DNA of 64,000 bases from Escherichia coli (lineage in GTDB: Bacteria > Pseudomonadota > Gammaproteobacteria > Enterobacterales > Enterobacteriaceae): NCBI RefSeq assembly GCF_050920415.1, contig NZ_CP169309.1. One strand, given 5' to 3'. Of this stretch, positions 481 through 56,053 are shown piece by piece. Positions within the stretch are counted from its first letter, which is position 1, and each line of letters starts with the position of its first letter. Both the position numbers and the translations under genes were made by a program. The notes beneath the pieces are model-generated. The model saw only the letters and a list, made by a program, of their open reading frames with translations. It made no database searches and had not been told where the DNA came from.

Positions 481-1604
481 TGCTTCACCAACAGTGTCAG
501 CACTTCATAGTGCGCGGTGTGCGGGAACATATCAAAAAGCTGTACCCGTTCAATACGATAACCTGACAGTTCGCGGATATCTTTGGCCATCGTTTGGGCG
601 TTACAGCTGGAGTAGATGATAAAACGCGGAGCCATCGTTGAAAGATAATCACACAGCGGTTTACCAATGCCGCGGCGCGGCGGGTTAACCAGCACCAGCT
701 CCGGCACCTCCCCCTGAGCGGTGGCAAACTGAGTGGAGTCCAGCGCCTGAAATTGTAAACGCGTTAAGCCCAGTTCAGCGGCTGACTGCTTTGCACAGGC
801 AATGGCCTCTGGCGCAATTTCGATCCCGGTTAACTGCATGTCAGGCGTCGCGCAGTGTAAACCAAAGCCCCCCACACCGCAGAACAGATCCCACATATGT
901 TTAACCGGCAGCTGTCGTACCCAGTCGCGCGCGGTGGCGTACAACTGGCTGGCGACCGCCGGATTAGTCTGGAAGAAACTTTGCGGACGGATCCACAGCG
1001 GTACGTCATTAAAACGCTCTGCCAGCGCCTGTTGTTCGGTCAGGTAGATCTCCGTCTCCCCTTCCATAATCGCCATATGTACCGGCTGAATGTTGACGGT
1101 AATAACTTTCAGCTGCGGCAGTTGTGCCTGTAACCACGGTAGCGCCTTACGCAGTTGTGCCAGCTTGGTTTCGGAACGCAGTACAAAGCGCAGCATCATG
1201 CCACCATCGCTCTGGCTTTCAGTCAGCAGAATGTATTTCAGTTCGCCACGCTTACGCGCCACATTGTAGGGGGTTAGCCCCGCACGGGCGATAAACGGTT
1301 TTAGCGCCGCAAAAACGGGCGCAAATGAGGCAGGATAAAGCGGGCAATCGCAAAGGTCTTCTGGTGTGCCGTCGCGATGCAGCATACCGAGCAGTGGTTT
1401 TTCAACGCTACCACTCACCACCATTTTGGCTTTATTACGAAACCCTTGCTCCGGGCCTGACACCGGCGCGCACCATTCCTCAACCGAAAAGTCGGCGAGC
1501 AGATTTTTAAGATCGGCGGTTTTAGCGGAGAGTTGCTCTGGAATCAGCTGCGTTATCCACTGACAGGAACGACAGCGACCCGCGTCGTAAAGTGCGCACT
1601 GCAT
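477..1604 (-). CDS. rlmC: 23S rRNA (uracil747-C5)-methyltransferase
   Basis: 375-aa ORF; N-terminal Cys cluster ([14 protein letters not shown]) and SAM-MTase motifs; recognised as RlmC/RumB. Confidence 0.93.
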
Positions 1605-1644
1605 ACATTGACCTTCACATCATCAGGGGCGACGATTATACACA

Positions 1645-2133
1645 TTATTGCAACTGGAAGAACCGCCGACTGGTCGAGGGAACGAACAGTAGCAACAGGA
1701 TGAGCATATCCGGCAACTTCTGCAGCATCAGACTATGGAAGATTTCACGTTTTGATTCACCGGGAATGCTGAACAGCTCCGGATAACCATACCCCAGCGA
1801 AGCCGCCCACAAATAACTGGCGGCCGTGATTTGTGTCAACAGATACAGCCAGCGCGCCCAGCGACGCCCTTTCACCAGTGAAAACGCACACCAGATCTCA
1901 ATGAAAACCAGCACCAGGCTGCTTAAAAAGACCAGTGTTAAACTCCAGGTTTGTACACTGCGATGAATGAACTCGCCAATACCGCGCACGCCCAGCGTAT
2001 TGAAAATCATCAGCACGTCGAGGCCACGGATCATAATAATGGCGAGCGCCGCCACCTGCACCAGCGCAGGCACATTCAGGCGAGCATGAGATGAAGATGT
2101 TTTCTTAAAAAATCCCAACGTTTCGTCTTCCAT
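1645..2133 (-). CDS. ybjO: Inner membrane protein YbjO
   Basis: 162-aa hydrophobic ORF matching recalled YbjO; synteny. Confidence 0.88.
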   Translation of the reverse strand: MEDETLGFFKKTSSSHARLNVPALVQVAALAIIMIRGLDVLMIFNTLGVRGIGEFIHRSVQTWSLTLVFLSSLVLVFIEIWCAFSLVKGRRWARWLYLLTQITAASYLWAASLGYGYPELFSIPGESKREIFHSLMLQKLPDMLILLLLFVPSTSRRFFQLQ

Positions 2134-2192
2134 GAAAACAATGCCGCGACATGCGCGGCATTATGTAGCCAGGTTGGCAAATTTTAGTGTCT

Positions 2193-3038
2193 TCAGCCAC
2201 GTCTTGCACGCTGGATGTCGCGTATCCGCTGTTTTTCTGCACGCGCCATCAGATACCAGGCGATAAATCCGACAATTCCGACCGCGCCGAGGATCAATGT
2301 TGCCAGGGCGTTGATTTCCGGATTCACCCCCATCCGCACGCTGGAGAAGACCAGCATCGGTAACGTGGTGGCTCCTGGCCCGGAAACAAAGCTGGCAATC
2401 ACCAGATCGTCGAGCGACAGAGTAAAAGCCAGTAACCAGCCAGAAATGATCGCGGGCATGATCATCGGTAGCGTAATGACGAAAAACACTTTCAGCGGCG
2501 TCGCACCGAGATCCATCGCTGCTTCTTCAATGGAACGGTCCAGCTCCCGCAGACGCGACGAAATAACGACTGCCACATAAGCCGTACAGAAAGTGACATG
2601 CGCCAGCCAGATGGTGAGCATGCCTCGCTCCGCAGGCCAGCCGATGGCATGTGCAAGTGCGACAAATAACAACAACAGCGACAAGCCCGTGATGACATCT
2701 GGCATCACCAGCGGCGCGGTGATCATAAAGGCAAAACCATTTGATCCGCGAAACCTGCCAAAGCGCACCAGCACGACCGCCGCAATCGTCCCGAGGATCG
2801 CCGCCGCCGTTGCCGCACAGGCAGCTATTGTCAGGCTTAAACCAACCGCGCTCATCATCGCGTCATCACGCAGTAATTCGCCATACCAGCGCGTTGACCA
2901 GCCCGCCCACACCGTCACCAGCTTCGAGCTGTTAAACGAATAGATAACCAGCATCAGCATTGGCGCGTAGAGAAAGGTGAAGCCCAACAGCAAAATCACA
3001 ATTCGCCAGGGCGAACGAACCACCGGTAAATTATTCAT
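2193..3038 (-). CDS. potI: Putrescine ABC transporter permease PotI
   Basis: ORF track gives 295 aa; internal start MNNLPVV gives the expected 281 aa and an ATGA overlap with the potH stop. Confidence 0.92.
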   Translation of the reverse strand: MNNLPVVRSPWRIVILLLGFTFLYAPMLMLVIYSFNSSKLVTVWAGWSTRWYGELLRDDAMMSAVGLSLTIAACAATAAAILGTIAAVVLVRFGRFRGSNGFAFMITAPLVMPDVITGLSLLLLFVALAHAIGWPAERGMLTIWLAHVTFCTAYVAVVISSRLRELDRSIEEAAMDLGATPLKVFFVITLPMIMPAIISGWLLAFTLSLDDLVIASFVSGPGATTLPMLVFSSVRMGVNPEINALATLILGAVGIVGFIAWYLMARAEKQRIRDIQRARRG

Positions 3039-3988
3039 CCGTGTTCTCCCACGCTTTTTTGCTGATGCTTGTGGAACCACATTATCGGCACAATTAGCAG
3101 CAACAACATGATGATCGCCACTGCCGAGGCCACCGGCCAGTCACGGTTGTTAAAGAACTCCTGCCACAGCACGCGTCCGATCATGATGCTATCCGGACCG
3201 CCGAGCAGCTCCGGGATTACAAACTCGCCCACAGCCGGGATAAACACCAGCATCGATCCGGCAATAATCCCGCCTTTGGTCAGCGGCACGATCACAGTAA
3301 AGAACGTTTTCAGCGGTCGTGCACCGAGATCCAGTGCCGCTTCCACCAGCGAATAATCAATACGAATCAACGCGGTATAAATCGGCAGCACCATAAACGG
3401 CACGTAGGCGTAAACAATGCCAATATAAACGGCCAGGTTGGTATGCAGAATGGTCAGCGGCTGGTCGATAACCCCCAGCCACAGCAGAAAATTATTCAGC
3501 ACGCCGTTATTTTTTAATATTCCCATCCAGGCATAAACGCGGATCAGAAACGAGGTCCACGACGGCAGGATCACCAGCAGCAATAAGATATTGCGGGTCG
3601 AAGGCTTACTGTGCGCCACCGCCCACGCCAGCGGATAGCCGATCAGTAAACAACAAATTGTCGAAATCGCCGCTACCTGTAACGACTGGAGATATGCATC
3701 GAAATAGAGCGGATCGTCAGTCAGTTGCAGGAAATTACCAAGATTGAGGGTGATGGAAAGTTGCCCGTCAGCCCACTCCATCAGTTCGGTATAAGGTGGA
3801 ATAGCGCGCGCCATCTCCGCCAGACTTATTTTAAAGACGATCAGAAATGGCAGCAGAAACAGCAAGATCAACCAGATATACGGCAACGCAATGACCAGTT
3901 TGCGCCCATGCTTCATTTGCAGCTGCGACAACCACAGCTTAAATCCGCCCGGCGGTTTCGACTGGGCAGCAGGTTCAAGTGTACTCAT
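3035..3988 (-). CDS. potH: Putrescine ABC transporter permease PotH
   Basis: 317-aa multi-TM ORF matching recalled PotH; operon context. Confidence 0.94.
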   Translation of the reverse strand: MSTLEPAAQSKPPGGFKLWLSQLQMKHGRKLVIALPYIWLILLFLLPFLIVFKISLAEMARAIPPYTELMEWADGQLSITLNLGNFLQLTDDPLYFDAYLQSLQVAAISTICCLLIGYPLAWAVAHSKPSTRNILLLLVILPSWTSFLIRVYAWMGILKNNGVLNNFLLWLGVIDQPLTILHTNLAVYIGIVYAYVPFMVLPIYTALIRIDYSLVEAALDLGARPLKTFFTVIVPLTKGGIIAGSMLVFIPAVGEFVIPELLGGPDSIMIGRVLWQEFFNNRDWPVASAVAIIMLLLLIVPIMWFHKHQQKSVGEHG

Positions 3989-45461: not shown

Positions 45462-46580
45462 CTAGCTGGCCGGGAACATAACTAACAAAACGTATCCCAC
45501 CAGCGCCGCCCACAACAGCATCGGTATTGAATAGAGATGGAAACGCCACCAGATACGGCGATCGTTTGCCATCCGTAACGCAATCAAATTTGCCAGCGAT
45601 CCGGGTAATAAACCAAAGCCACCCACGTTTACCGCCCATGCCAGTAATAAAGACGGTGGCACATAATTGAGCAGCAAAATCGTGCTCGGCACGTTACTGA
45701 TCACCTGCGATAAACCAATTGCCGTTAACCATAATCCGGGTTCGGATAAATGGCTCACATTGCTCAACACGCCCTGCAAAGCTGGCAGTTGGGTCAGCAA
45801 ATGGACGTCGATAAACATCGCCATAAATACCAGCAGCAGAGTCCAGTCCACGCTGATCACCACGCGACGAGCCAGCAGCGCAAAGCCCGCCGCTACAATC
45901 ACCAGTCCCCACAGCTCTTGTTTTAACTCCAGCGCCGTCAGAAAGACGATATACAGCCCCAGACAACTCCACACCAGCCGCGGTTTCCACTCAGGTGTTT
46001 GCGCCCCCGTATGATATTGCAGCGCCTTTCCAGGGAAACAACACCAGCACAGTAGCAGGAGTGTCAGCATCATTGCGCCAGCCAGCGGTGCCATTTGGGC
46101 AATAAACCCGGCAAACGAAAGACCAGAACGACCCCAGATAAGAATATTTTGCGGGTTGCCAATCGGCGTCAGTAGCGAACCCGCATTGACTGCCAGCGCC
46201 TCAAAAATAATCAGTCGATTAACCGGGATCTCACACAGTCTTTTTAGTGTGATTGTCAGCGGAACAACAATAAACAGCGCGACATCGTTGGTCAGAAATG
46301 TTGAAAGCAACGCCGCCGCCAGCACCATAAACATTGCCAGCCGACGCTCAGTAGCAAAGCGGCGCACCATTTTGCGCCCCAGCACATCAAAATAACCGCT
46401 TAACTCCACACCTTTGGTCAGCAGCATCAGGCCACTGAGGGTGATGATAGTGTGCCAGTCGATAGCAGCAAGCCAGGATTTCGGTGCAAAGGGAACGAAA
46501 AAACTTAATCCGATGCCAACAAGAATTAATAACTGAAAAAAGCGATCGCCTTGTAGCGTGCGTAAAAAAGGCAGGCTCAT
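45462..46580 (-). CDS. ybiR: Putative anion permease YbiR (ArsB/NhaD superfamily)
   Basis: 372-aa multi-TM ORF; ATGA overlap with the mntR stop. Confidence 0.9.
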
Positions 46581-47044
46581 TTGGCACCGTGTTTCTGGGT
46601 AAACAAACGAAAGGCATCCAGCGTCTCTTCACTGACATGGTGCTCCATGCCTTCCGCGTCGCGACGAGCGATTTCCGGGCTGACGCCCAACACCAACAAG
46701 AAATTTTCGACTATCTGATGTCGCTCGCGGCTTTCCTGCGCCAGTTTCTCTCCTTCTGCCGTTAAAAACACGCCACGCCAGGGGATCATTTCAATCAGCC
46801 CCATGGTTGCCAGTCGTTTGAGCATTTTAGCCACCGTCGGTTGCGAAACGCCCAGACGAGCAGCCATGTCCACCTGACGAGCTTCCCCCACTTCCCTGAT
46901 CAAGTCAGAAATCAGCTCAACGTAATCATCAATAAGCTCGCGCCGGTGTGCCTCTCTGACCTGGCGGAACCCTTCAACGTGCTCTTCCACATTCACTAAC
47001 TGCGTCACTTTTTTTGCTGTTGGCGTACCTGCGCGACGACTCAT
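46577..47044 (-). CDS. mntR: Manganese-responsive transcriptional regulator MntR (DtxR family)
   Basis: 155-aa [25 protein letters not shown] matching recalled MntR. Confidence 0.95.
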
Positions 47045-47409
47045 TGTGCTTCCTCATTATGGTGACGCATACATAGCGTTCTCATTTCGTGCGCACATTG
47101 TAAACCAGAGTTGCGAAGGTACAAAAAATTAACGTTTTAGCAATAGCTATATAATATAGCTTTGGACCCCAATAAAAACCAAATGAAAACAATTAATTAT
47201 GAAAGAAATATCATTGTAATGTCGCAAGAATGTCGCAGAATTTTGAATTTTACATCAAACAGAAATCTTACATAAGTCGTCGAAAAGGAAAACTACCAAT
47301 ATCTTTTCGGTGTTTCCTTTCCCCAAATGGAATTTTTCCTGTTATGCTAATATTCGTTTTAAGGTGTTGATAACTAACATTACACAAAGCAATTAGAACG
47401 GATACTAAC

Positions 47410-48984
47410 ATGGCTAAAAACGCAAAAAACGAGAAACCAAAAAAGTTAGCTTATAGAATAAAAAGTATTAATATTGAAAAATTAAAAGGTATAAATAACT
47501 GCCCTATTTCCTTCCCAGCAGACAGGTCTGTAACTGCTATAATGGGAATTAATGGTTCAGGTAAATCAACAATATTGCACGCTCTATCATGTGTTTTCAA
47601 ACCCAAAGAAAAATCATCCCAAGAAAATAATAGATTTTCTGACTTCTTTACCCCTCACAATGAAAATAACTGGCAAGATAGTAAATTCTCAGTAAAATTT
47701 CGAGCGGGAGAGATAAAAAACAATGGTAATAAAGTCTTTTTTGAAGAAATAGATAATGAAGAAAAGAAAGATATTGTTTATGGCAAGGATAAAAGGTGGA
47801 AACCAGTTTACGCAAGAAGACTTGAAAGAGAATCTATATATATAGGATTACAAAATCTTGCAACGTTAGCTGACAATACAGGAGCATCAAGATACTCAGA
47901 ATATGAAAGAGTAGATATTTATGATAAAGATATAAAGAATCAAATGATATTAGCTCTGAATAAAATCTTAGATGCAGATTACAACGATTTGTTTGAATGC
48001 CGCACCATTAAGGGAAACAAAAAATTCATAGGCATGGTTAAAAACGGCATTGAGTATACAGAACATACTATGGGTGCTGGAGAAAAGAGAGTCTTTGAGA
48101 TAGTTAAAAATGTTTATAATGGAAAGTTAATGCCCAATGGTTTTCTAATCATTGATGAAATAGATGTTTTGCTACATGAAAGAGCTTTTCATGAATTAAT
48201 TAATTTTCTTATCGAAGAAAGCAAGTCTATGTGTTTTGAGGTTGTTTTCACAACACATAGAGAATCCATAATAAAGTTTAAAAATCAAATCAATATAGTA
48301 AGTATATGGAACATAGGGAATGGAATAGAGGCTTATCCCGGCGTTTCTGCGGATGCTCTTCGACAGATATCCAATGTAGAACCTGATATGGTCAATGTGT
48401 TTGTAGAAGACAACTTAGCAAAAACAGCACTAAATATTTTAGTTGAAAGTGAAGGTATGAATGAACAAGTTGATATCTCGCTTTTTGGTTCGGCTGAGAA
48501 TTCAGCTGTAATTTTGTCAGGACTTAAATTAACTGGCAAACGAATTGATACAAGCCTGGCAATTTTAGACGGTGATTACTATATTACCCTCCCTGAAAAG
48601 ACCAAAATGGTTGATAGAGTGTTATCTGGAACAGATAAAAAAGTAGAAAAAAAAGAAGTCTTATCAAGAATATTCCAATTCAATTTAGATGTGACTGACG
48701 TCAAAGGCTCTCCAGAAAAAAACCATCGTGATTGGTTTGAATCTATAGACGAAAACAATATTTCGGAAAATGATAAGACAATGTTTCTTAACCTGAAAAA
48801 ACATTCTACAAGTATTGGTGCTTTAACTGATTATCATGAATATTATCCAGAGTTAGCTCGAAGGTCAAAATTAGATAATATTGAGTACAAAGTTTTGAAT
48901 TATATTAGTAAGTATAGTAATAAATGGGATTTTTACATAAATGATATTAGAAATGAAATAAAAAAAGCAATTGCAGCGATCTAA
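47410..48984 (+). CDS. ABC-type ATPase fused to a TOPRIM-like domain; class-1 OLD-family-like nuclease, candidate anti-phage defence protein
   Basis: 524-aa ORF in AT-rich DNA. Walker A GINGSGKST (aa 46-54), signature-like MGAGEKR (221-227), Walker B FLIIDEID (245-252), H-loop TTHR (281-284), then a TOPRIM-like Glu (FVEDN, E333) and DxD (LDGDY, 387-389). Own terminator downstream. Confidence 0.6.
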   Translation: MAKNAKNEKPKKLAYRIKSINIEKLKGINNCPISFPADRSVTAIMGINGSGKSTILHALSCVFKPKEKSSQENNRFSDFFTPHNENNWQDSKFSVKFRAGEIKNNGNKVFFEEIDNEEKKDIVYGKDKRWKPVYARRLERESIYIGLQNLATLADNTGASRYSEYERVDIYDKDIKNQMILALNKILDADYNDLFECRTIKGNKKFIGMVKNGIEYTEHTMGAGEKRVFEIVKNVYNGKLMPNGFLIIDEIDVLLHERAFHELINFLIEESKSMCFEVVFTTHRESIIKFKNQINIVSIWNIGNGIEAYPGVSADALRQISNVEPDMVNVFVEDNLAKTALNILVESEGMNEQVDISLFGSAENSAVILSGLKLTGKRIDTSLAILDGDYYITLPEKTKMVDRVLSGTDKKVEKKEVLSRIFQFNLDVTDVKGSPEKNHRDWFESIDENNISENDKTMFLNLKKHSTSIGALTDYHEYYPELARRSKLDNIEYKVLNYISKYSNKWDFYINDIRNEIKKAIAAI

Positions 48985-48991
48985 ACCTCAT

Positions 48992-49021
48992 AAAAGGCGT
49001 AATTTATACGCCTTTTTTTAA
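48992..49021 (+). terminator. Rho-independent terminator after the OLD-like gene
   Basis: Hairpin AAAAGGCGTAATTTATACGCCTTTT followed by a T-run, 8 nt after the stop. Confidence 0.55.
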
Positions 49022-49181
49022 GGTTTAAATTATAGTTGCTAATTTCTACTCTTTGTTCCCTCTGTTCGTGCACGTTTCAGGTAGTAAGCTCTCCATCGAA
49101 CCATAGAGATTGAACGCTTTGATTTTTTTTTACATACTGTCTGAAGCTCATTTACTAAGTATTGATAGTCAGGATGACAAC

Positions 49182-49808
49182 ATGACCTCCTACGATGAAC
49201 TTAAAGAATGCATCCGCCTTGAAGTCATTGGCCATGACAAATCCTTTTCATGGCGTAAAGCGTTACTTCGTACCCGACGCAACCAGAAGAAGCACTTCCT
49301 GTTCTGGTGGCGTATCGCTTCATGGCTCTATGGCCAGAATAGTAAGTTCAAAAAGCGCATTGCCCGCAGAATTGAAAACCGCCTCAAGTACCTGCATAGC
49401 GTTGATATTTCGCTGTCATGCAAAATCGGCAAGGGTTTAAACATTGCTCATCTGAACGGTATTGTCATTACTGACAATTGCGTGATTGGTGATTTCGCCG
49501 ACCTGAAGCAAGGCATCACCATAGGGTTACGCACCGACAGTGCCGACGCGATGATAGTCATTGGTGATCATGTTGATATTGGCTGTAATTCGTCCATTCT
49601 GGGCGGCAAGGTTACGATCGGAAACAATGTCACCATTGGGGCGCATTCACTGGTACTTCAGAACATCCCCAGCGACACCGTTTATAAAAACAAGATCACG
49701 CCGGTGTATACATCCAAACTACCGCAGCAGGAATATCAGGAAAATCGGCCTTTTGTCACTGGCAAGGCGATAAAAGAAGCGTCCCGTTCCGCAGAAGCGG
49801 TGCTGTAA
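49182..49808 (+). CDS. Hexapeptide-repeat (left-handed beta-helix) acetyltransferase, CysE/WcaB-like
   Basis: Start MTSYDELKE preceded by AGGATG; the 232-aa track start at 49110 has no RBS. N-terminal helical region (RIASWLY...RIARRIENRLKYLHSVDI) then hexapeptide repeats IGKGLNIAH-GIVITDNCVIGD-ITIG-IVIGDHVDIG-VTIGNNVTIGAHSLVL. Confidence 0.6.
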   Translation: MTSYDELKECIRLEVIGHDKSFSWRKALLRTRRNQKKHFLFWWRIASWLYGQNSKFKKRIARRIENRLKYLHSVDISLSCKIGKGLNIAHLNGIVITDNCVIGDFADLKQGITIGLRTDSADAMIVIGDHVDIGCNSSILGGKVTIGNNVTIGAHSLVLQNIPSDTVYKNKITPVYTSKLPQQEYQENRPFVTGKAIKEASRSAEAVL

Positions 49809-50186
49809 TTTCGCTGAACAAATTTCAGTTATGAAGATTGCATAAATTTACGTGCAGCCCGCGCCAGCTCTTACAAGCGGGCTAATCTCTATAATGTCTG
49901 GCTTATCTCCCAACGATCCACGAACACCGCCTAAAATATAATTTTCCCTTTATTATCTGTGCGTTATGATTTTACACCGATCCTTAACAGATCCTCTTTA
50001 CTGAAAAAAATGAAATTTCTTTCAATCATTTCAGTTCCTGTTCTCCGCAAAGCCGCCAGTAATGGTGCGGTCTGGCGCTCTGGTTTGTAGAAAAATAAAA
50101 CTGAAAAAATTTCCAGATCCAGAAACCGCAGGCGGGTGCGGTGTAGCGCCGTTTTTGTCTGCGAAAGATTTATTTTGTCGGCGCAT

Positions 50187-50230
50187 CGCAGCGCCAGCGC
50201 AGCGCCAGCGCAGCGCCAGCGCAGCGCCAT
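50187..50230. repeat. Four tandem copies of an 11-bp unit CGCAGCGCCAG
   Basis: Direct reading: cgcagcgccag x3 then cgcagcgccat, in the non-coding gap between the acetyltransferase and the tail operon. Confidence 0.8.
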
Positions 50231-50315
50231 GCGCACGATCTTTTATGTGTGTTGCGTTGGGTTAATTTGTTGCCTGAAGTGCTGAGGGCGCGTTCTGCTG
50301 CGTCTGAGGAAGGGT

Positions 50316-50342
50316 ATGAAAAAGCCCGCATTATGCGGGCGT
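50316..50342 (-). terminator. Rho-independent terminator at the end of the tail operon
   Basis: On the minus strand, hairpin GCCCGCATAATGCGGGC followed by TTTTTC, 10 nt after the stop of the 567-aa gene. Confidence 0.5.
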
Positions 50343-50352
50343 GTTGTCATGG

Positions 50353-52056
50353 TCAGGCAATTATATTCTGGTACTTGCTCCGGGTCTGCCCTGCTTTCGT
50401 CGCCGTCTGTACGAACGCGTCAGCATTGGTTGGCGTCCCAACAGTGGGGTGTGAATGGTTCGCGCATTGCTGCGCCAGCTCTGCCAGTAAATCAATGGTA
50501 TCCAGCATCATGGTCAGGGCGTTGATACTCTCGCTGCCAATATGGACAGTTGCCCCCATGACCTGCTGACCGCCAGCGGCCACTGATTTACGCAGTGCGG
50601 CAATCTTCTCTGTCAGGCTTTCGCCAACCTCCACGGCTACAGCACCGCCCACTTTAGTGGACTGCTGTCCTGCTATGTCCGTTTCTTCGTTTCCTTCAAT
50701 ACTGGCCAGCCTGTTTCCTTTCACCGCCTGGCTATAATCACCGGCGCTTACCTGCTGGATGGCTCCGGCCAGCAGTGTGGCGGTTCCCAGTACCGTGGTT
50801 TTATCCGTGGCTTTCACCGTGGTTTCACGGCTGACCAGTTCGCGCTGTTCCGTATCGGCTTTTACGGTTCGCGCCATCGATGTTTCGCTGATGGTCTGAT
50901 CGGTCTGCCTTACCCAGTCGCCCGCCTGAGTCACCCTCTGGGATACTTCTTCCCGCTGCTGCTGCAACTGTTCACCGGGTTTAACGTCCGGCAGACTGGT
51001 GCCATCCGGTAGCGTCTGCCTGATAAAAGGTTTATCCGGTCTGCCTCCCGTGAATGCAACCTCAACCAGCGTCCCTTCTGGCGGAAACTGAAACATACCT
51101 GAATCATTCCCGGCCATTGGTACCGGCAGCGGCACCGCTGAATAAACAGGCGTCTGATTGTCCGGGTTTCCGTCTGCGTCAAGCAGCTGCACGTCCACGG
51201 CGTAACGTGGCCGGAAGGGATCGGCAAAGTTACCGCTTTTTACCGGCTCTGAATGCGCCACAACTCTGGCCATCTTTGGCAAATGAAGCCCGGATGCCAG
51301 TTCCGGGTAATGGCTTTCAATCTGCCGTTGCGCCGGTGTTTTCTGCAAAGGTTTACCCGTTGCGCGGTTTCTCGGCGTCCATGTGATCGCCATCGCGTCA
51401 TTAGTCAGGTGAACTTTAGTCACGCGTTCACCGTTCATCTCCACCCCTGGCCGCATAGTCTGGATCACTGGTAATGTCACAGAGTTACCGCCAGCAGCCC
51501 CCTGGCTGAACTCTGACGGGATTTCTACGGGGCGACCGGCAAATAATGACTTTTCTGCGCCGCCGACGTAAAGCGAACCATCAGGCAACTGGTACCAGAT
51601 GTAATCCTGGATACTGAACGCCCTTCCCAGATTGTTCAGCAACTGATAACCAGTACCGTTATGGGTAAAATGTGGGATGGGGGTATCGCTGTACTGTGCA
51701 TCAGGCACACTGACCGTGATCCCGCTGTTTTCTTCCAGCCAGCTGGCAACCTCGCGTAAAGTTGGATGTTGAAATGAGCACGGCCACATCCTTTCAAATA
51801 CACCTGCCAGCTCACGAATGAACAGACGCTGAAAACCGTTTTCAGCGGGCTGCGATCGCTCCACATACCCCGTAAACCAGCGCAAAAGCAGATCGGTATA
51901 CCCCACATCCAGCCGCACCAGTTTTCCGGTGTAATCGGTTGTTGTCTCTGCGGTGATGAAGCCCCGGCCGCAGCTGTTCAGCTCCAGTACCAGGCTGGCA
52001 TCCACCAGGTGAACTTCATCAGTTGAAAGGTAAAGGCGTTTTACTGGTTTCATCAT
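50353..52056 (-). CDS. Phage tail hub/spike-like protein (gpV/VgrG-type OB-fold candidate)
   Basis: 567-aa ORF, last gene of the tail operon; internal segment GTLVEVAFTGGRPDKPFIRQTLPDG resembles the G-x-V-x-V-x-F-x-G-D-x-D-x-P-x-I motif of gpV/gp5/VgrG spikes; Ala/Gly/Thr-rich C-terminal region. Confidence 0.4.
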   Translation of the reverse strand: MMKPVKRLYLSTDEVHLVDASLVLELNSCGRGFITAETTTDYTGKLVRLDVGYTDLLLRWFTGYVERSQPAENGFQRLFIRELAGVFERMWPCSFQHPTLREVASWLEENSGITVSVPDAQYSDTPIPHFTHNGTGYQLLNNLGRAFSIQDYIWYQLPDGSLYVGGAEKSLFAGRPVEIPSEFSQGAAGGNSVTLPVIQTMRPGVEMNGERVTKVHLTNDAMAITWTPRNRATGKPLQKTPAQRQIESHYPELASGLHLPKMARVVAHSEPVKSGNFADPFRPRYAVDVQLLDADGNPDNQTPVYSAVPLPVPMAGNDSGMFQFPPEGTLVEVAFTGGRPDKPFIRQTLPDGTSLPDVKPGEQLQQQREEVSQRVTQAGDWVRQTDQTISETSMARTVKADTEQRELVSRETTVKATDKTTVLGTATLLAGAIQQVSAGDYSQAVKGNRLASIEGNEETDIAGQQSTKVGGAVAVEVGESLTEKIAALRKSVAAGGQQVMGATVHIGSESINALTMMLDTIDLLAELAQQCANHSHPTVGTPTNADAFVQTATKAGQTRSKYQNIIA

Positions 52057-52601
52057 TAACCCAAAGCATCATTGACGGGCTTCAGCACCTTGCGTTCAAA
52101 CCACGTCAGTTTTTCTTCATCTTCTCCGGCAGACTGGCCACCGGACTGTCCCGCACTGCCGGTAGTCTGTTTTTTTGCGGTCGTCTTACCTGTTGCCCTG
52201 GCCTCTCGCTTTTCCTGCACGCTGATATGTTCCGCCAGTGTGAATGTCACCAGCCAGGCCATTTTCCCGTCCTGCTGGGGTGCATCCAGCATTCCGCTGA
52301 ACGTTGCTTCACGAAAATTAACAGCACGGGCAACTTCATGCGCCACGCGGTACTTCTGACGATTACCACTGGCATCGGTAGCACTGGCCAGCTCAAAAAT
52401 ACGCTTCAGTATTTCAGGCTGTTTAAAAGGTATTTCACCGCTGATCCGCAGTTCCTTTCCCTTTGCTCCCTGCTCTGATTTTGTTGTGGCGCTGGTCTGG
52501 CCGGACTGATCTTTATCCTGAAATTGCTGTGAAACAGTCACCCGCATGTTTTTCAGCTGGATGGCCTCGCCATTAAGCGCCAGTGTCGGGATCGAAGTCA
52601 T
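52056..52601 (-). CDS. Phage protein of unknown function within the tail operon
   Basis: 181-aa ORF translationally coupled to neighbours; no recognisable motif; Lys/Gln/Gly-rich C-terminus. Confidence 0.35.
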   Translation of the reverse strand: MTSIPTLALNGEAIQLKNMRVTVSQQFQDKDQSGQTSATTKSEQGAKGKELRISGEIPFKQPEILKRIFELASATDASGNRQKYRVAHEVARAVNFREATFSGMLDAPQQDGKMAWLVTFTLAEHISVQEKREARATGKTTAKKQTTGSAGQSGGQSAGEDEEKLTWFERKVLKPVNDALG

Positions 52602-53298
52602 GAATCATTCCCTTTATTCCATCAAGATTATCGCCAACCAGCATCATGGCAGCGGTGTAAACGGCAGACTGCTGCGGAATGTCCTTCACCAGTTCCAGTA
52701 ACGTGGTGCCGGTGTCTCCGCTGGCAGTAAAAACCCACACTCTGGCACTCTTTCCCTGTAAATCATTCAGGCCGCTGGCTACATCACTGATAAGCTGGTC
52801 ACGCAGCTGCGTGAACTCGCCCAGCTGTTTTTTCAGCCCTTCGATATCAAACCCGGCATCCGCCGCCTTTTGTGCCTGGCTGATTGCCGTAGCAGATAAA
52901 GCTGCCCTGCTGGTTGGTACAGACAGCGGAATGGACGCAGGTAACGCTGCGGCGGTTTTCGCAGGGATCTGCATCTTTTCAATAGCCAGCGCTGCGGCGG
53001 ATTGCGCCAGTCGTTTGACCTGCGTGAATGCCGGGGCGGGGAAAATCCCGACCAGGTTATTCAGGCTGGCCATAAAGTTTTCCTGTGTCTGTCCGGTGAC
53101 CATCATAATCACCACGTCCGCATTCCCCCCAGTTCCGGCCAGGCGTTCAGCAAGATAGCGAACGGCATTAACCGGGCTGAGATATGCCCCGTTCGCAGTC
53201 TGCTGTCCCAGCCCATAAATCCACGGATGCGCAGGAACGATCGAACAGTTCAGCGCAGCAACAGAATCCGTGAAGGCCAGACGTGCTTCACGCCACAT
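52573..53298 (-). CDS. Phage protein of unknown function within the tail operon
   Basis: ORF 52573-53334; start chosen at MWREARL to minimise overlap with tfa; no recognisable motif. Confidence 0.3.
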   Translation of the reverse strand: MWREARLAFTDSVAALNCSIVPAHPWIYGLGQQTANGAYLSPVNAVRYLAERLAGTGGNADVVIMMVTGQTQENFMASLNNLVGIFPAPAFTQVKRLAQSAAALAIEKMQIPAKTAAALPASIPLSVPTSRAALSATAISQAQKAADAGFDIEGLKKQLGEFTQLRDQLISDVASGLNDLQGKSARVWVFTASGDTGTTLLELVKDIPQQSAVYTAAMMLVGDNLDGIKGMIHDFDPDTGA

Positions 53299-53875
53299 TT
53301 CCAGGCACCTCCGGCCACACAATTTCCGGCGCATCTTCCGGTTGAATACGGTTCAGTAAAACGCGGTATTTTTTCCAGGCGGTAAGCAGCAGTGCTTCTT
53401 CTTCAGTCGCCATGTCTAAATCAACGGCATCCTGCAATGTGGCAATGGCGTCATTGGCCTGTTTAAGCAGTCTTTTCTTTTCGGCGTCTGCCTCGCTGAC
53501 TAATGCAATTCGCATGGCCTCCGCATCATCCACCCACGCCTTACCATTCCATTTTTGCCAGGCATTAGCCGGTGCAGACGTGGTTGTCCCTTCCGGGTAA
53601 GCGCCTGGCTCGGTGATCACCAGTTCATTACCGTTTTCTGTATCAAACACCACCTCACCACGATGATCCTCACGGGAAATCCATCTTTGCTTCTCTGAAT
53701 CAAAAATTGCCACAAACCCCGCTTTGATTACCGGTGGTTTTATTGTGGTGCAGTTAGCTGGTAGTCCGGTATGCGCAGGTATAAAAGCGTCACCCGAACC
53801 AATAAATTCATTCGTGTCGGAACGCAGGTTATAAACAGTAACTATTTGATCGGTTTCACTCATTTTAAAAGTCAT
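53288..53875 (-). CDS. Tail fiber assembly protein (Tfa family)
   Basis: 195 aa; close resemblance to recalled E. coli TfaE/TfaQ-type proteins (NEFIGSGDAFIPAHTGLPAN ... KWNGKAWV ... LLTAWKKYRVLLNRIQPEDAPEIVWPEVP). Confidence 0.8.
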   Translation of the reverse strand: MTFKMSETDQIVTVYNLRSDTNEFIGSGDAFIPAHTGLPANCTTIKPPVIKAGFVAIFDSEKQRWISREDHRGEVVFDTENGNELVITEPGAYPEGTTTSAPANAWQKWNGKAWVDDAEAMRIALVSEADAEKKRLLKQANDAIATLQDAVDLDMATEEEALLLTAWKKYRVLLNRIQPEDAPEIVWPEVPGNVA

Positions 53876-55449
53876 TATGCGAGTCTCACTATGTAGTTAA
53901 ATGCAATATTCTTAACGGTCGTTTCTGCGTTGCCCGACGCGGCGACGGTAATGGTGTGGCTATGTGCGCCAATTGCCACGGTATGAGAGTGAGCGCCAAT
54001 ACCTACGGTGTGATTATGTGCACCAATGGCTACGGTGTGCGCGTGGTTTCCCGCCGAACTGGTGGCGGCTCGCCCCTGATCGCTACGTGGTACCCCCCAG
54101 TCACTACCACCTGATTGCACGTTCCCGCCATAACCAATGGTGTGCGTATGCGCTCCCGTGGTATTTGTCGTTTTCGTGCCATAGTCAAACGTGCTCGCCG
54201 TTTTAGTACCGTAATCAAAGGACGATGTTGGTTTTGTCCCCAGATCGGTACTGGATGCACTGGCTGTGTGGTCATGAGATTTATTGCCATCATCTTCATA
54301 GGAGAGAACTGCGCGACCGTCTGGCTTTCCTTTGATTGTCTGGCGGCGCATGTCAGTAATAACACCCGATGGATACGCAGCAGCCAGCAAAGGATATGCC
54401 GCCGTATTAAAAGACTGCCCCTGCATAATTGCCCATCCAGTAGGTGGGATATCCGTTGGCCATGGAAGCGGCACACCAACCGGCAGAACATCACTGCGAC
54501 TTAAAACGGCCAGTTCACCCAGATCCAGACTTTTTCTTGCTTTTACTTTGTCGTTAACATCAGCAAGGTTTGCATCCTTACGCAAAAAATCGCTGCTGGC
54601 CTGCTGTTCTCCCAGGCTACCTTTTGGCCTTAAATCCGTGATGTTGCCATCCGCATCAATGCTGGCCACAGCAAACACATAATGCTGAACCCCGTTCTGA
54701 ACGTAATCAGCAAGATTTGCAGCCACCGTGATTTTGCTCTGCACATTCCAGACACTGGTCAGCGTCCCTGTCCAGCACACATCCAGCCAGACTTTTACCG
54801 GCTTTGTCGTTACCGTAATATTCTGATTCGCAGCCAGTGACGCACGAAGTCCAGCCACATACCCCGTGCCTTTCGTGACAAAAAACTGATTTCCGGTTTT
54901 GGCTACCAGATACCCGTTACCAAAAAACGCCGCCGCGCCATAAATATCCATATTTTCCAGGCGCTGGCGCTCATCCATTCCGGCCATACGCGCTGTAAAA
55001 TCAATCTGCCATGTTTCAGCGGGTGTATTAATCCCGGTTTCCGTTTGTGCGCCGTTGTACTCCATCAGAAACGAGCGGGTCAGCACGTTCCCCTGTTGAC
55101 CTTCTTTTGTTTTCAGTTTCTGCTGTGATGGTGCATGGACAATCATTGCCAGAGTACCGCTGGCCTTATTGAGCAGACCGATCCAGTTAAAACTGAAATC
55201 ACCCACATCTGCGCCCAGCACTACGGAATAAACCACCCCGTTTTCATTCACCACACCGGTGCGGGTAACAGATTGCCGGTGAACAATCTGTGCTGTCGGG
55301 GGCAACGCTTCATTGCGGTCAACAGGTGTATCCGGGTTTAAATCCGGCACACTGGCAAAAACAAATTCATCCAGTAGTACCGGTTCACCCGTTGCGCCCT
55401 GCTGTGCTTTCCAGTTTTCAAACGCCAGTGTGATGGCTGTCTGTGACAT
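53875..55449 (-). CDS. Side tail fiber protein
   Basis: 524 aa; C-terminal HxH repeats [49 protein letters not shown] typical of Stf-family fibers; immediately upstream of tfa. Confidence 0.8.
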
Positions 55450-55459
55450 AAAAACCTCC

Positions 55460-56053
55460 TTACAAACTCGCGCTGAATGTTGCGCTGCGGGCTTCCGTCC
55501 CTGCTAACGTCGCCGGGTAAACCACATATTCCCCCTGATCCCACCCAGCCCTGATAACCAGGCTTTCAGACGTGATCACCTCAAACTGATAACGGCGGCA
55601 TGTTCGCCCGTACTGGCGGATTATCTGGATCAGCAGCTGCGTGTTGTCTGCAATCTGGCTGTCTGTAACCCGAACCAGAATCACATCCCAGTCGATATCC
55701 GGTTGCCGTTCTAACAGCTCCACATAACCAATTCCCAGCCGTTCAAAGATATTGATAAACCCCTCTACTGAACCGGCATCCCGCGCATTCACGAAGGCAA
55801 AAGCCACGCGTTTGCGGAACAGGGTCAACGGTTCACCATCAAAGCGGGTGATATCCCGGTCATAAGCCAGCAGATTCAGTAATGCCGGTGTACACGTCAG
55901 CGGATCAAACTGGTTCATTGGCCAGGTAACCCAGCCGTAAACCTCAGCCCAGAACCGCCGCGCCGCTTTCAGCAATTTCCCCGGTTCACCTTTATTCATC
56001 CAGGAAGGCAAGACCATCCCGGCCAGCTTTTTCATGAACTCATTCATTCTCAA
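55460..56053 (-). CDS. Tail protein, YmfQ/gpI-like (DUF2313-type)
   Basis: 197 aa between the baseplate J-like gene and the fiber, as for e14 ymfQ; family assignment is from memory only. Confidence 0.55.

Follow-up and report, generated by a model that had tools for sequence, protein, structure and literature searches.

A 64,000-nucleotide stretch of Escherichia coli DNA (NCBI RefSeq assembly GCF_050920415.1, contig NZ_CP169309.1; hereafter the window) contains a prophage whose tail operon runs from the tape measure gene directly to a W-like gene, and in which three genes (positions 50353-53298, minus strand) lie distal to the tail fiber assembly gene tfa. What do these three genes encode, and which of them supplies the hub and spike of the baseplate? 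The initial annotation regarded two of the products as proteins of unknown function and the third as a possible fused hub-spike. The present analysis indicates that the three are very probably the inner, central baseplate genes of an HP1/ESSI-2-type P2-like prophage, encoding a hub-spike protein of 567 amino acids (aa), a tube-like adaptor of 181 aa and an accessory protein of 241 aa.

The prophage is ESSI-2-like and belongs to Quadragintavirus, in the HP1 subgroup of Peduoviridae. Its three-gene block of ~3 kb showed 96-98% nucleotide identity to four Escherichia phages of the ESSI2_ev series (Peduoviridae, Quadragintavirus), with 98% for Escherichia phage ESSI2_ev015, and 74% identity to Cronobacter phage ESSI-2. 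The coordinates of the open reading frames (ORFs) confirmed that the three genes follow tfa, and that no hub or spike gene stands between the tape measure and W-like genes, which overlap each other with zero ORFs between them. Overlaps also join tfa to the 241-aa gene (11 nt), the 241-aa to the 181-aa gene (29 nt) and the 181-aa to the 567-aa gene (1 nt), and a strong intrinsic terminator lies behind the last stop codon; the three genes are therefore the distal end of a single late operon, the last genes of its tail part. In phage K139, a terminator is annotated at the equivalent position, after orf39.

The terminal gene encodes a predicted fusion of hub and central spike

Fold and sequence evidence together identify the 567-aa protein as a predicted fused hub and central spike with VgrG-like architecture. 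The AlphaFold2 (AF2) monomer model, computed from a 37-sequence alignment (28-92% identity), displays an N-terminal hub fold of the gp27/gpD type followed by an oligonucleotide/oligosaccharide-binding (OB) fold in the same chain. Hub-spike fold relatives were recovered by structure-based search, and whole-chain structural alignments to VgrG and PVC8 spanned 330-410 residues. The OB-fold motif reported in the initial annotation was recognized by Pfam as Phage_base_V (PF04717; residues 309-345, E 3.3e-4). Further downstream, residues 413-508 matched the beta-helix of T4 gp5 in phmmer (E 5e-7), besides weak VgrG matches, and Pfam Gp5_trimer_C was found at residues 440-486 (E 0.002). PHROGs placed the gene in phrog_2258, 'baseplate protein' (E 5.6e-276). 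With hub fold, OB-fold and gp5 beta-helix match in one chain, the earlier suggestion that the terminal gene is a fused hub-spike was borne out. The mean predicted local distance difference test (pLDDT) score of the model was 72, with 85-94 for residues 1-230, intermediate values in the OB region and 33-73 in the beta-helix region, low values being expected there because an intertwined trimer was modeled as a monomer.

Homologue diversity was drawn from 17 phage records taken individually; the homologue search for the 567-aa protein, by single sequence or profile, returned relatives at 63-98% identity only, and the locus search with a 3-sequence orf34 alignment returned relatives at 83-99% identity only. 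Hub and spike are separate ORFs in nine of the related phages (phi3, ACA2, UFJF_PfPro, PV94, yong1, C5a, SMHB1, 1.202.O and F4_PE002). In these, a hub ORF of ~230 aa overlaps a spike ORF of 223-323 aa, and the break falls at approximately residues 232-240 of the 567-aa protein. The hub ORF is unannotated in the records of phi3 and C5a, as is the orf33 homologue in phi3.

The two histidines of the C-terminal HxH motif, H534 and H536, were invariant in nine sequences and present in at least 90% of the 37 aligned, and the C-terminus of P2 gpV carries HTHKH. A cage of HxH histidines holding an Fe ion has been described as a universally conserved hallmark of spike apex domains (bioRxiv 10.1101/2023.02.25.529910), and the motif in the 567-aa protein may form such a metal-binding apex. 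A different ending was observed in the Vibrio phages PV94, yong1, 1.202.O and F4_PE002, where the spike terminates in a Cys-rich motif (e.g. GKGVCTGATVCPFTGGGH) instead of HxH and is followed by an extra 65-aa gene non-homologous to the 567-aa C-terminus (L094 4998-5195, L095 4897-5094, L098 4940-5137 and L099 4937-5134 in the loci of the four phages in that order). The Cys-rich end and the 65-aa gene may represent an alternative spike tip.

The domain plan of the 567-aa protein is that of type VI secretion system (T6SS) VgrG and of the Afp8 and PVC8 spikes of extracellular contractile injection systems: a gp27-like hub fused to a gp5-like OB-fold and a beta-helix. Sequence identity to VgrG, Afp8 and PVC8 is only 12-15%. 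The hub part is ~230 aa long, whereas the N-terminal VgrG fragment c3393 (PDB 2p5z) has 361 residues, and the tip carries the HxH motif in place of a PAAR-capped blunt end. Scores for the NCBIfam VgrG models TIGR01646 and TIGR03361 (16.4 and 15.1 bits) were far below the cut-offs of 121.8 and 186.35. The protein thus works like VgrG but is not a T6SS family member, being a component of a phage and not of a secretion system. P2 (gpD and gpV) and Mu (gp44 and gp45) use two genes where one is found here, and V precedes W in P2. The hub is also shorter than P2 gpD/Mu gp44 (232 versus 387 aa) and has no sequence-level match to them: P2 gpX, gpU, gpD and gpV, used as phmmer queries, gave null results against all ORFs of the HP1 tail region, of 23 kb of ESSI2_ev015 and of the prophage-bearing 50-64 kb of the window. 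The kinship of the 567-aa hub to P2 gpD is at the level of fold only.

Such a fusion is not new, since the N- and C-terminal halves of HP1 orf35 have been matched by HHpred to P2 gpD and gpV, respectively, and were described as fused in HP1 (PMC10612066, Viruses 2023, Table S1). In the same study, gpD-like and gpV-like proteins were detected by mass spectrometry in virions of phage ACA1 (Table S2).

The 181-aa protein has a tail-tube fold

The 181-aa protein belongs to Pfam PF25759 (Bacteriophage HP1 ORF34 baseplate complex protein), matching model positions 2-176 of 180 with residues 6-181 (E 2.2e-54). For structure prediction, the 241-aa and 181-aa proteins were modeled by AF2 as one chain of 452 residues, joined by a Gly/Ser linker of 30 residues. 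A block-diagonal alignment was used, with 12 paired phage rows and 83 unpaired rows, the latter checked to align with their correct half. The resulting model had a mean pLDDT of 83.5 and a predicted template modeling (pTM) score of 0.56. Sequence and profile searches of both proteins against PDB chains gave nothing significant. In the structure search, the 181-aa part showed a tail-tube fold, and its closest matches were 'ripcord', baseplate centerpiece and tube initiator proteins, including pyocin PA0626. The tube domain is followed by a disordered G/S/Q/K-rich linker (residues 140-162 in the AF2 model) and a terminal helix in which the orf34 family consensus keeps L..FE..VLK..DD.LG.

Having a tube-fold domain and being encoded beside the hub gene, the 181-aa protein falls into the centerpiece/tube initiator class, and we propose, on the modeled fold, that it is most likely a minimal baseplate centerpiece, tube initiator or 'ripcord' ring between hub and tube. 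It is likened to pyocin R2 PA0626, P2 gpU, Pa193 gp38 and gp39, Milano gp25, the N-domain of Mu gp43 and XM1 gp11. Proteins of this class have an N-terminal Tube domain of ~127 residues that carries the tube onto the hub, then a helical wedge-joining domain and sometimes LysM (PMC10811340). In size, the tube domain of the 181-aa protein compares well with that of the Milano centerpiece (residues 1-127; PMC10811340), whereas the helical domain and LysM are missing and only the disordered linker and one terminal helix are present. The helix is a possible tether to the wedge. The two proteins of unknown function had been suggested to be possibly structural and gpU-like. The 181-aa protein shares the tube fold with P2 gpU, but its membership of the P2 gpU sequence family is not supported, as searches with Pfam and hhalign were null (see below); no sequence relation to P2 gpU was detectable.

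Homologues of the 181-aa protein are labeled 'nucleoid DNA-binding protein', 'adenine glycosylase' or 'tail-collar fiber protein' in NC_030940 (phi3), NC_070917, NC_027368, NC_047775, NC_048066 and NC_049477. These labels do not fit the fold and are probably mistaken.

The 241-aa protein is a lineage-variable accessory virion protein

The 241-aa protein had been given as 253 aa, which is the length of the longest ORF, starting at an ATG (53334) within tfa. The true start is almost certainly the ATG at 53298, because a Shine-Dalgarno sequence, GGAGG, lies 8 nt upstream, the annotated ESSI2_ev015 gene starts there and full-length homologues begin with MWRE. The end coordinate of 53298 in the initial annotation itself agrees with this start, and the sizes of 567 and 181 aa needed no correction.

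The protein matches PHROG 1677, to which no function is assigned (E 1.4e-75), and Pfam found no match. The family, named here after HP1 orf33, is small: an exhaustive phmmer search of 1.84 billion cluster representatives yielded only 108 clusters (50% identity). Its members have ~240 aa, or ~290-300 aa with an N-terminal extension, and can be aligned from Haemophilus to Pseudomonas phages. The AF2 fold consists of an alpha/beta domain with an inserted helical hairpin of ~55 residues (pLDDT 90-98), and the PDB fold search with this model gave no convincing relative. Foldseek of the joint 241-aa and 181-aa model against AFDB50 returned nearly only members of the same families, labeled 'uncharacterized'. 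Among AFDB entries, G1V233 (495 aa) shows 26% identity to the 452-residue fusion model across 456 aligned columns and, judged from this alignment, may be a natural orf33-orf34 fusion. Another entry, A0A1Q9BT60, is a 315-aa fragment labeled Symbiodinium microadriaticum with 64% identity; it probably stems from bacterial or prophage DNA contaminating a dinoflagellate assembly and merges two overlapping genes.

Of 17 related phage loci, 11 were found to carry orf33 by a hidden Markov model (HMM) of the family. Being absent from the other six, orf33 cannot encode a core component, and the 241-aa protein is a lineage-variable accessory virion protein; its homologue in ACA1, gp46, was found in virions with 2 spectra, compared with 1-2 for gpW, gpJ and gpV (PMC10612066, Table S2). 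Two ideas about orf33 were rejected. A copy of orf33 hidden in the fiber gene of phages without orf33 was ruled out by the HMM, which found none on six-frame ORFs. A correlation of orf33 with the helix at the C-terminus of orf34 was ruled out by K139 and ACA2, which have orf33 and no helix, and by PV94 and yong1, which have the helix and no orf33. In the Pseudoalteromonas phage ACA2, a diversity-generating retroelement (accessory variability determinant and reverse transcriptase; 1490-3105 of locus L006) lies between the antireceptor gene and the orf33 homologue (PMC10612066); from this position, the site just upstream of orf33 appears to be a hot spot for host-range cargo.

Alternative roles for the three genes

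It is conceivable, though doubtful, that the 241-aa protein replaces the LysM 'glue' (P2 gpX, pyocin PA0627, T4 gp53; BW4), the helical wedge-joining domain of the centerpiece, or both; in that case, it would attach to the 181-aa ring and keep the six wedges joined until triggering. In favor of this reading, no LysM or gpX homologue was found in the regions searched: Pfam detected no LysM domain in the three proteins, PHROGs no gpX-like family among three small phage ORFs, and the phmmer search with P2 gpX was among the null searches described above. The 241-aa gene is directly upstream of the tube-domain gene and overlaps it, its helical hairpin recalls the helical glue domain of the Milano and pyocin centerpieces (PMC10811340), the possible fusion G1V233 joins the two families, and the low spectral count of the ACA1 homologue resembles those of other baseplate proteins. 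However, the six relatives without orf33 have orf34 homologues that are no larger, the domain order would be reversed relative to known centerpieces, solved baseplate proteins gave no fold similarity above the tube-type matches, and AF2 gave no confident interface with the 181-aa protein. A role of the 241-aa protein as centerpiece or wedge partner is no better than tentative. The wider proposal is less likely still: that the orf33 family would be a baseplate component of a new kind, taking the place of the glue (BW4) or of the helical centerpiece-wedge joining domain without being homologous to it and without a LysM domain. Some HP1-subgroup lineages could then dispense with it, and at least one genome would carry it naturally fused to the tube-domain protein. 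The 241-aa protein might instead belong to the fiber module, as a fiber-to-baseplate adaptor, a second fiber assembly factor or a host-range accessory protein, which we likewise regard as rather unlikely. Its gene comes directly after the fiber gene and tfa, and its start overlaps the stop of tfa; its patchy presence is typical of fiber modules; most of the surveyed relatives carrying orf33 have a gene annotated as tfa, chaperone or small tail fiber protein between the fiber gene and orf33; and in PV94, yong1, C5a and 1.202.O, which do not have orf33, the fiber gene adjoins the orf34 homologue. Yet P05B has orf33 without a tfa gene, orf33 of ACA2 follows the retroelement cassette and not tfa, and the 241-aa protein has no similarity to known fiber chaperones in PHROGs or Pfam. 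The orf33 sequence, moreover, tracks the tail module across its alignable range, whereas the fibers are mosaic.

The third alternative, that the block forms a non-structural module of its own (e.g. morons, lysogenic conversion genes or DNA-binding proteins), is highly improbable. It can draw only on some phage-record labels of orf34 homologues and AFDB names such as 'DNA-binding protein', and on the location of the genes at the end of the prophage, a common place for morons. Against it, the folds are those of a hub-spike and a tube, the genes share one operon with overlapping codons and one terminator, the position of the block is conserved across the subgroup with orf33 alone missing in some members, the GC content is phage-like, and gpD-like, gpV-like and orf33-like proteins are present in ACA1 virions by mass spectrometry (PMC10612066). 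Taking the three genes away would also leave the phage lacking a hub, a spike and a tube initiator. The non-structural reading is effectively refuted for the 567-aa and 181-aa proteins.

The assignment of the three genes to the inner baseplate has to be set against several results that weigh in the opposite direction. For the 567-aa protein, the beta-helix and apex were poorly modeled by AF2, the HxH loop was modeled between two helices, unlike the apex of gpV, and Pfam Phage_GPD (PF05954) gave no match even at E <= 10. For the 181-aa protein, Pfam gpU (PF06995) did not match, and hhalign of the orf34 family with P2 gpU was null (probability 0.1%). Its predicted kinship to gpU is one of fold only, and the tube fold is common to tube, Hcp and distal tail proteins. 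The homology to gpU has been rated 'uncertain' by others (PMC10612066), and no gpU-like protein was among those detected in virions of ACA1 (Table S2 of the same study). The 241-aa and 181-aa parts were not confidently docked in the joint model, as its pTM score indicates, and the HMM found no orf33 in PV94, yong1, C5a, SMHB1, 1.202.O or F4_PE002. The placement of the three proteins in the baseplate is something we infer, for this phage and for HP1 alike, and the same applies to the oligomeric states, the metal binding and the role of the 241-aa protein.

Proposed assembly of the baseplate

In the proposed model, which is drawn from the solved systems named above, the 567-aa protein would form a trimer serving as hub and needle and plugging the tube. 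The 181-aa protein would most likely form a hexameric ring on the pseudo-hexameric hub trimer and nucleate tube polymerization around the tape measure, a role likened to that of P2 gpU, pyocin PA0626 and the N-domain of Mu gp43; its flexible tail and helix would probably reach the wedge. The W, J and I proteins would build six wedges, which the C-terminal helix of the 181-aa protein may clamp, together with the 241-aa protein in phages that carry it. In this model, the 241-aa protein would most likely be a peripheral partner of the centerpiece or wedge. Fiber binding would open the wedge ring, and sheath contraction would then drive tube, ring and hub-spike through the outer membrane.

Gene order in the HP1 subgroup

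The tail ORFs of the window are collinear, gene for gene, with the annotated tail regions of HP1 and ESSI2_ev015 (Table 1). In HP1, orf23-orf35 are ordered as sheath, tube, hol, lys, Rz, chaperone, tape measure protein (TMP), orf28 (W), orf29 (J), orf30 (I), orf31 (fiber), orf32 (tfa), orf33, orf34 and orf35, and the window likewise has the HP1-subgroup module running from sheath, tube, lysis, chaperone and TMP genes through W, J, I, fiber and tfa to orf33, orf34 and orf35 at the genome end. The distal order, from the fiber region to the terminal block, is kept in K139, phiO18P, F108, SI7, YenM_324, ESSI-2 and P05B. A literature search found no paper on vB_YenM_324. As the order is common to HP1 and these seven phages, what had been called non-canonical is canonical for the HP1 subgroup of Peduoviridae; the description holds relative to P2, Mu and T4 only. 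Compared with P2, the U-like and D-like genes are still the last tail genes beside the genome end, whereas T and U are separated by the W-J-I-H-G block, and V is found at the C-terminus of D.

The three-gene architecture is thus the already described orf33-orf34-orf35 block of HP1 (UniProt P51737, P51738 and P51739; 23%, ~40% and 42% identity to the window proteins, respectively), equivalent to orf37-39 of K139 and gp03-gp01 of ESSI2_ev015, and as a finding it is ordinary. No essential difference from HP1-type relatives was observed; fiber and tfa alleles and the length of the beta-helix differ among members. What the analysis adds is confirmation at the level of fold, a more fitting label for the 181-aa protein, the correct start of the 241-aa protein and the recognition of the latter as a variable accessory protein with no known fold relative. 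HP1-type P2-like prophages are common in Enterobacteriaceae, Vibrio, Aeromonas, Pasteurellaceae and Pseudomonas, and, the module in the window being standard, the results matter mainly for annotation: the 567-aa protein can be more firmly labeled a fused hub-spike instead of a generic 'baseplate protein', and the 181-aa protein a tube-fold centerpiece/initiator instead of a 'DNA-binding protein' or 'adenine glycosylase'. For the evolution of contractile tails, the block provides a case in which hub and spike are one gene or two among close relatives.

In PHROGs, the W-like gene matched only a family of unknown function, as did the 241-aa and 181-aa genes, and five of six tail proteins had no NCBIfam family. 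The lysis cassette is placed inside the tail operon, between the tube gene and the tail chaperone and TMP genes, as in HP1.

Table 1. Positions of the tail genes, predicted domains and terminator in the window.
Feature	Position	Strand	Basis or remark
Sheath	61536-62663	-	
Tube	61084-61539	-	
Lysis cassette: holin-like (60772-61074), peptidase M15-type endolysin (60444-60902), Rz-like (60106-60444)	60106-61074	-	
Tape measure	57547-59514	-	PHROGs
W-like (DUF2590)	57221-57550	-	DUF2590 annotation and HHpred link of HP1 orf28 to gpW
J-like	56040-57224	-	PHROGs
I-like	55460-56047	-	PHROGs
Fiber	53875-55449	-	PHROGs
tfa	53288-53875	-	PHROGs
241-aa gene (HP1 orf33 family, PHROG 1677)	52573-53298	-	
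181-aa gene (HP1 orf34 family, Pfam PF25759)	52056-52601	-	
181-aa protein, tube domain, residues 7-138	52188-52583	-	Beta-rich core and one helix, pLDDT 94-97
181-aa protein, C-terminal amphipathic helix, residues 167-180	52062-52103	-	AF2 secondary structure and pLDDT
567-aa gene (HP1 orf35/K139 orf39 homologue)	50353-52056	-	
567-aa protein, predicted hub domain (gp27/P2 gpD/Mu gp44 fold), residues 1-232	51361-52056	-	
567-aa protein, predicted OB-fold domain of spike, ~residues 258-350	51007-51285	-	
567-aa protein, predicted beta-helical needle region, ~residues 363-510	50527-50970	-	
567-aa protein, C-terminal helix/HxH loop/helix, residues 513-567	50356-50520	-	
567-aa protein, HxH motif H534-S-H536, putative metal-binding apex	50449-50457	-	
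Strong intrinsic terminator, GCCCGCATAATGCGGGC then TTTTT	50324-50340	-	13 nt past the stop codon of the 567-aa gene

Sequences adjoining the prophage end

Similarity to the E. coli chromosome on the mntR-ybiR side stops at ~50180. Between this limit and the terminator, a short tandem array of the GCGCTG type (gcgctggcgctgcgctggcgctgcgctggcgctgcg) occupies 50187-50232 (minus-strand letters) and may belong to the prophage end or attachment region. An islet of low GC content (38-42% versus ~52%) extends over 46000-50000, between ybiR/mntR and the prophage; its plus-strand ORFs at 47410-48984 and 49110-49808 encode an AAA-family ATPase and a serine O-acetyltransferase-like protein. A 4.4-kb islet query was covered to at least 80% in only one of 5426 complete E. 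coli genomes. Other E. coli genomes hold different content at this site, e.g. a reverse-transcriptase gene, and the islet may be a variable defense or cargo islet adjoining the integration site.

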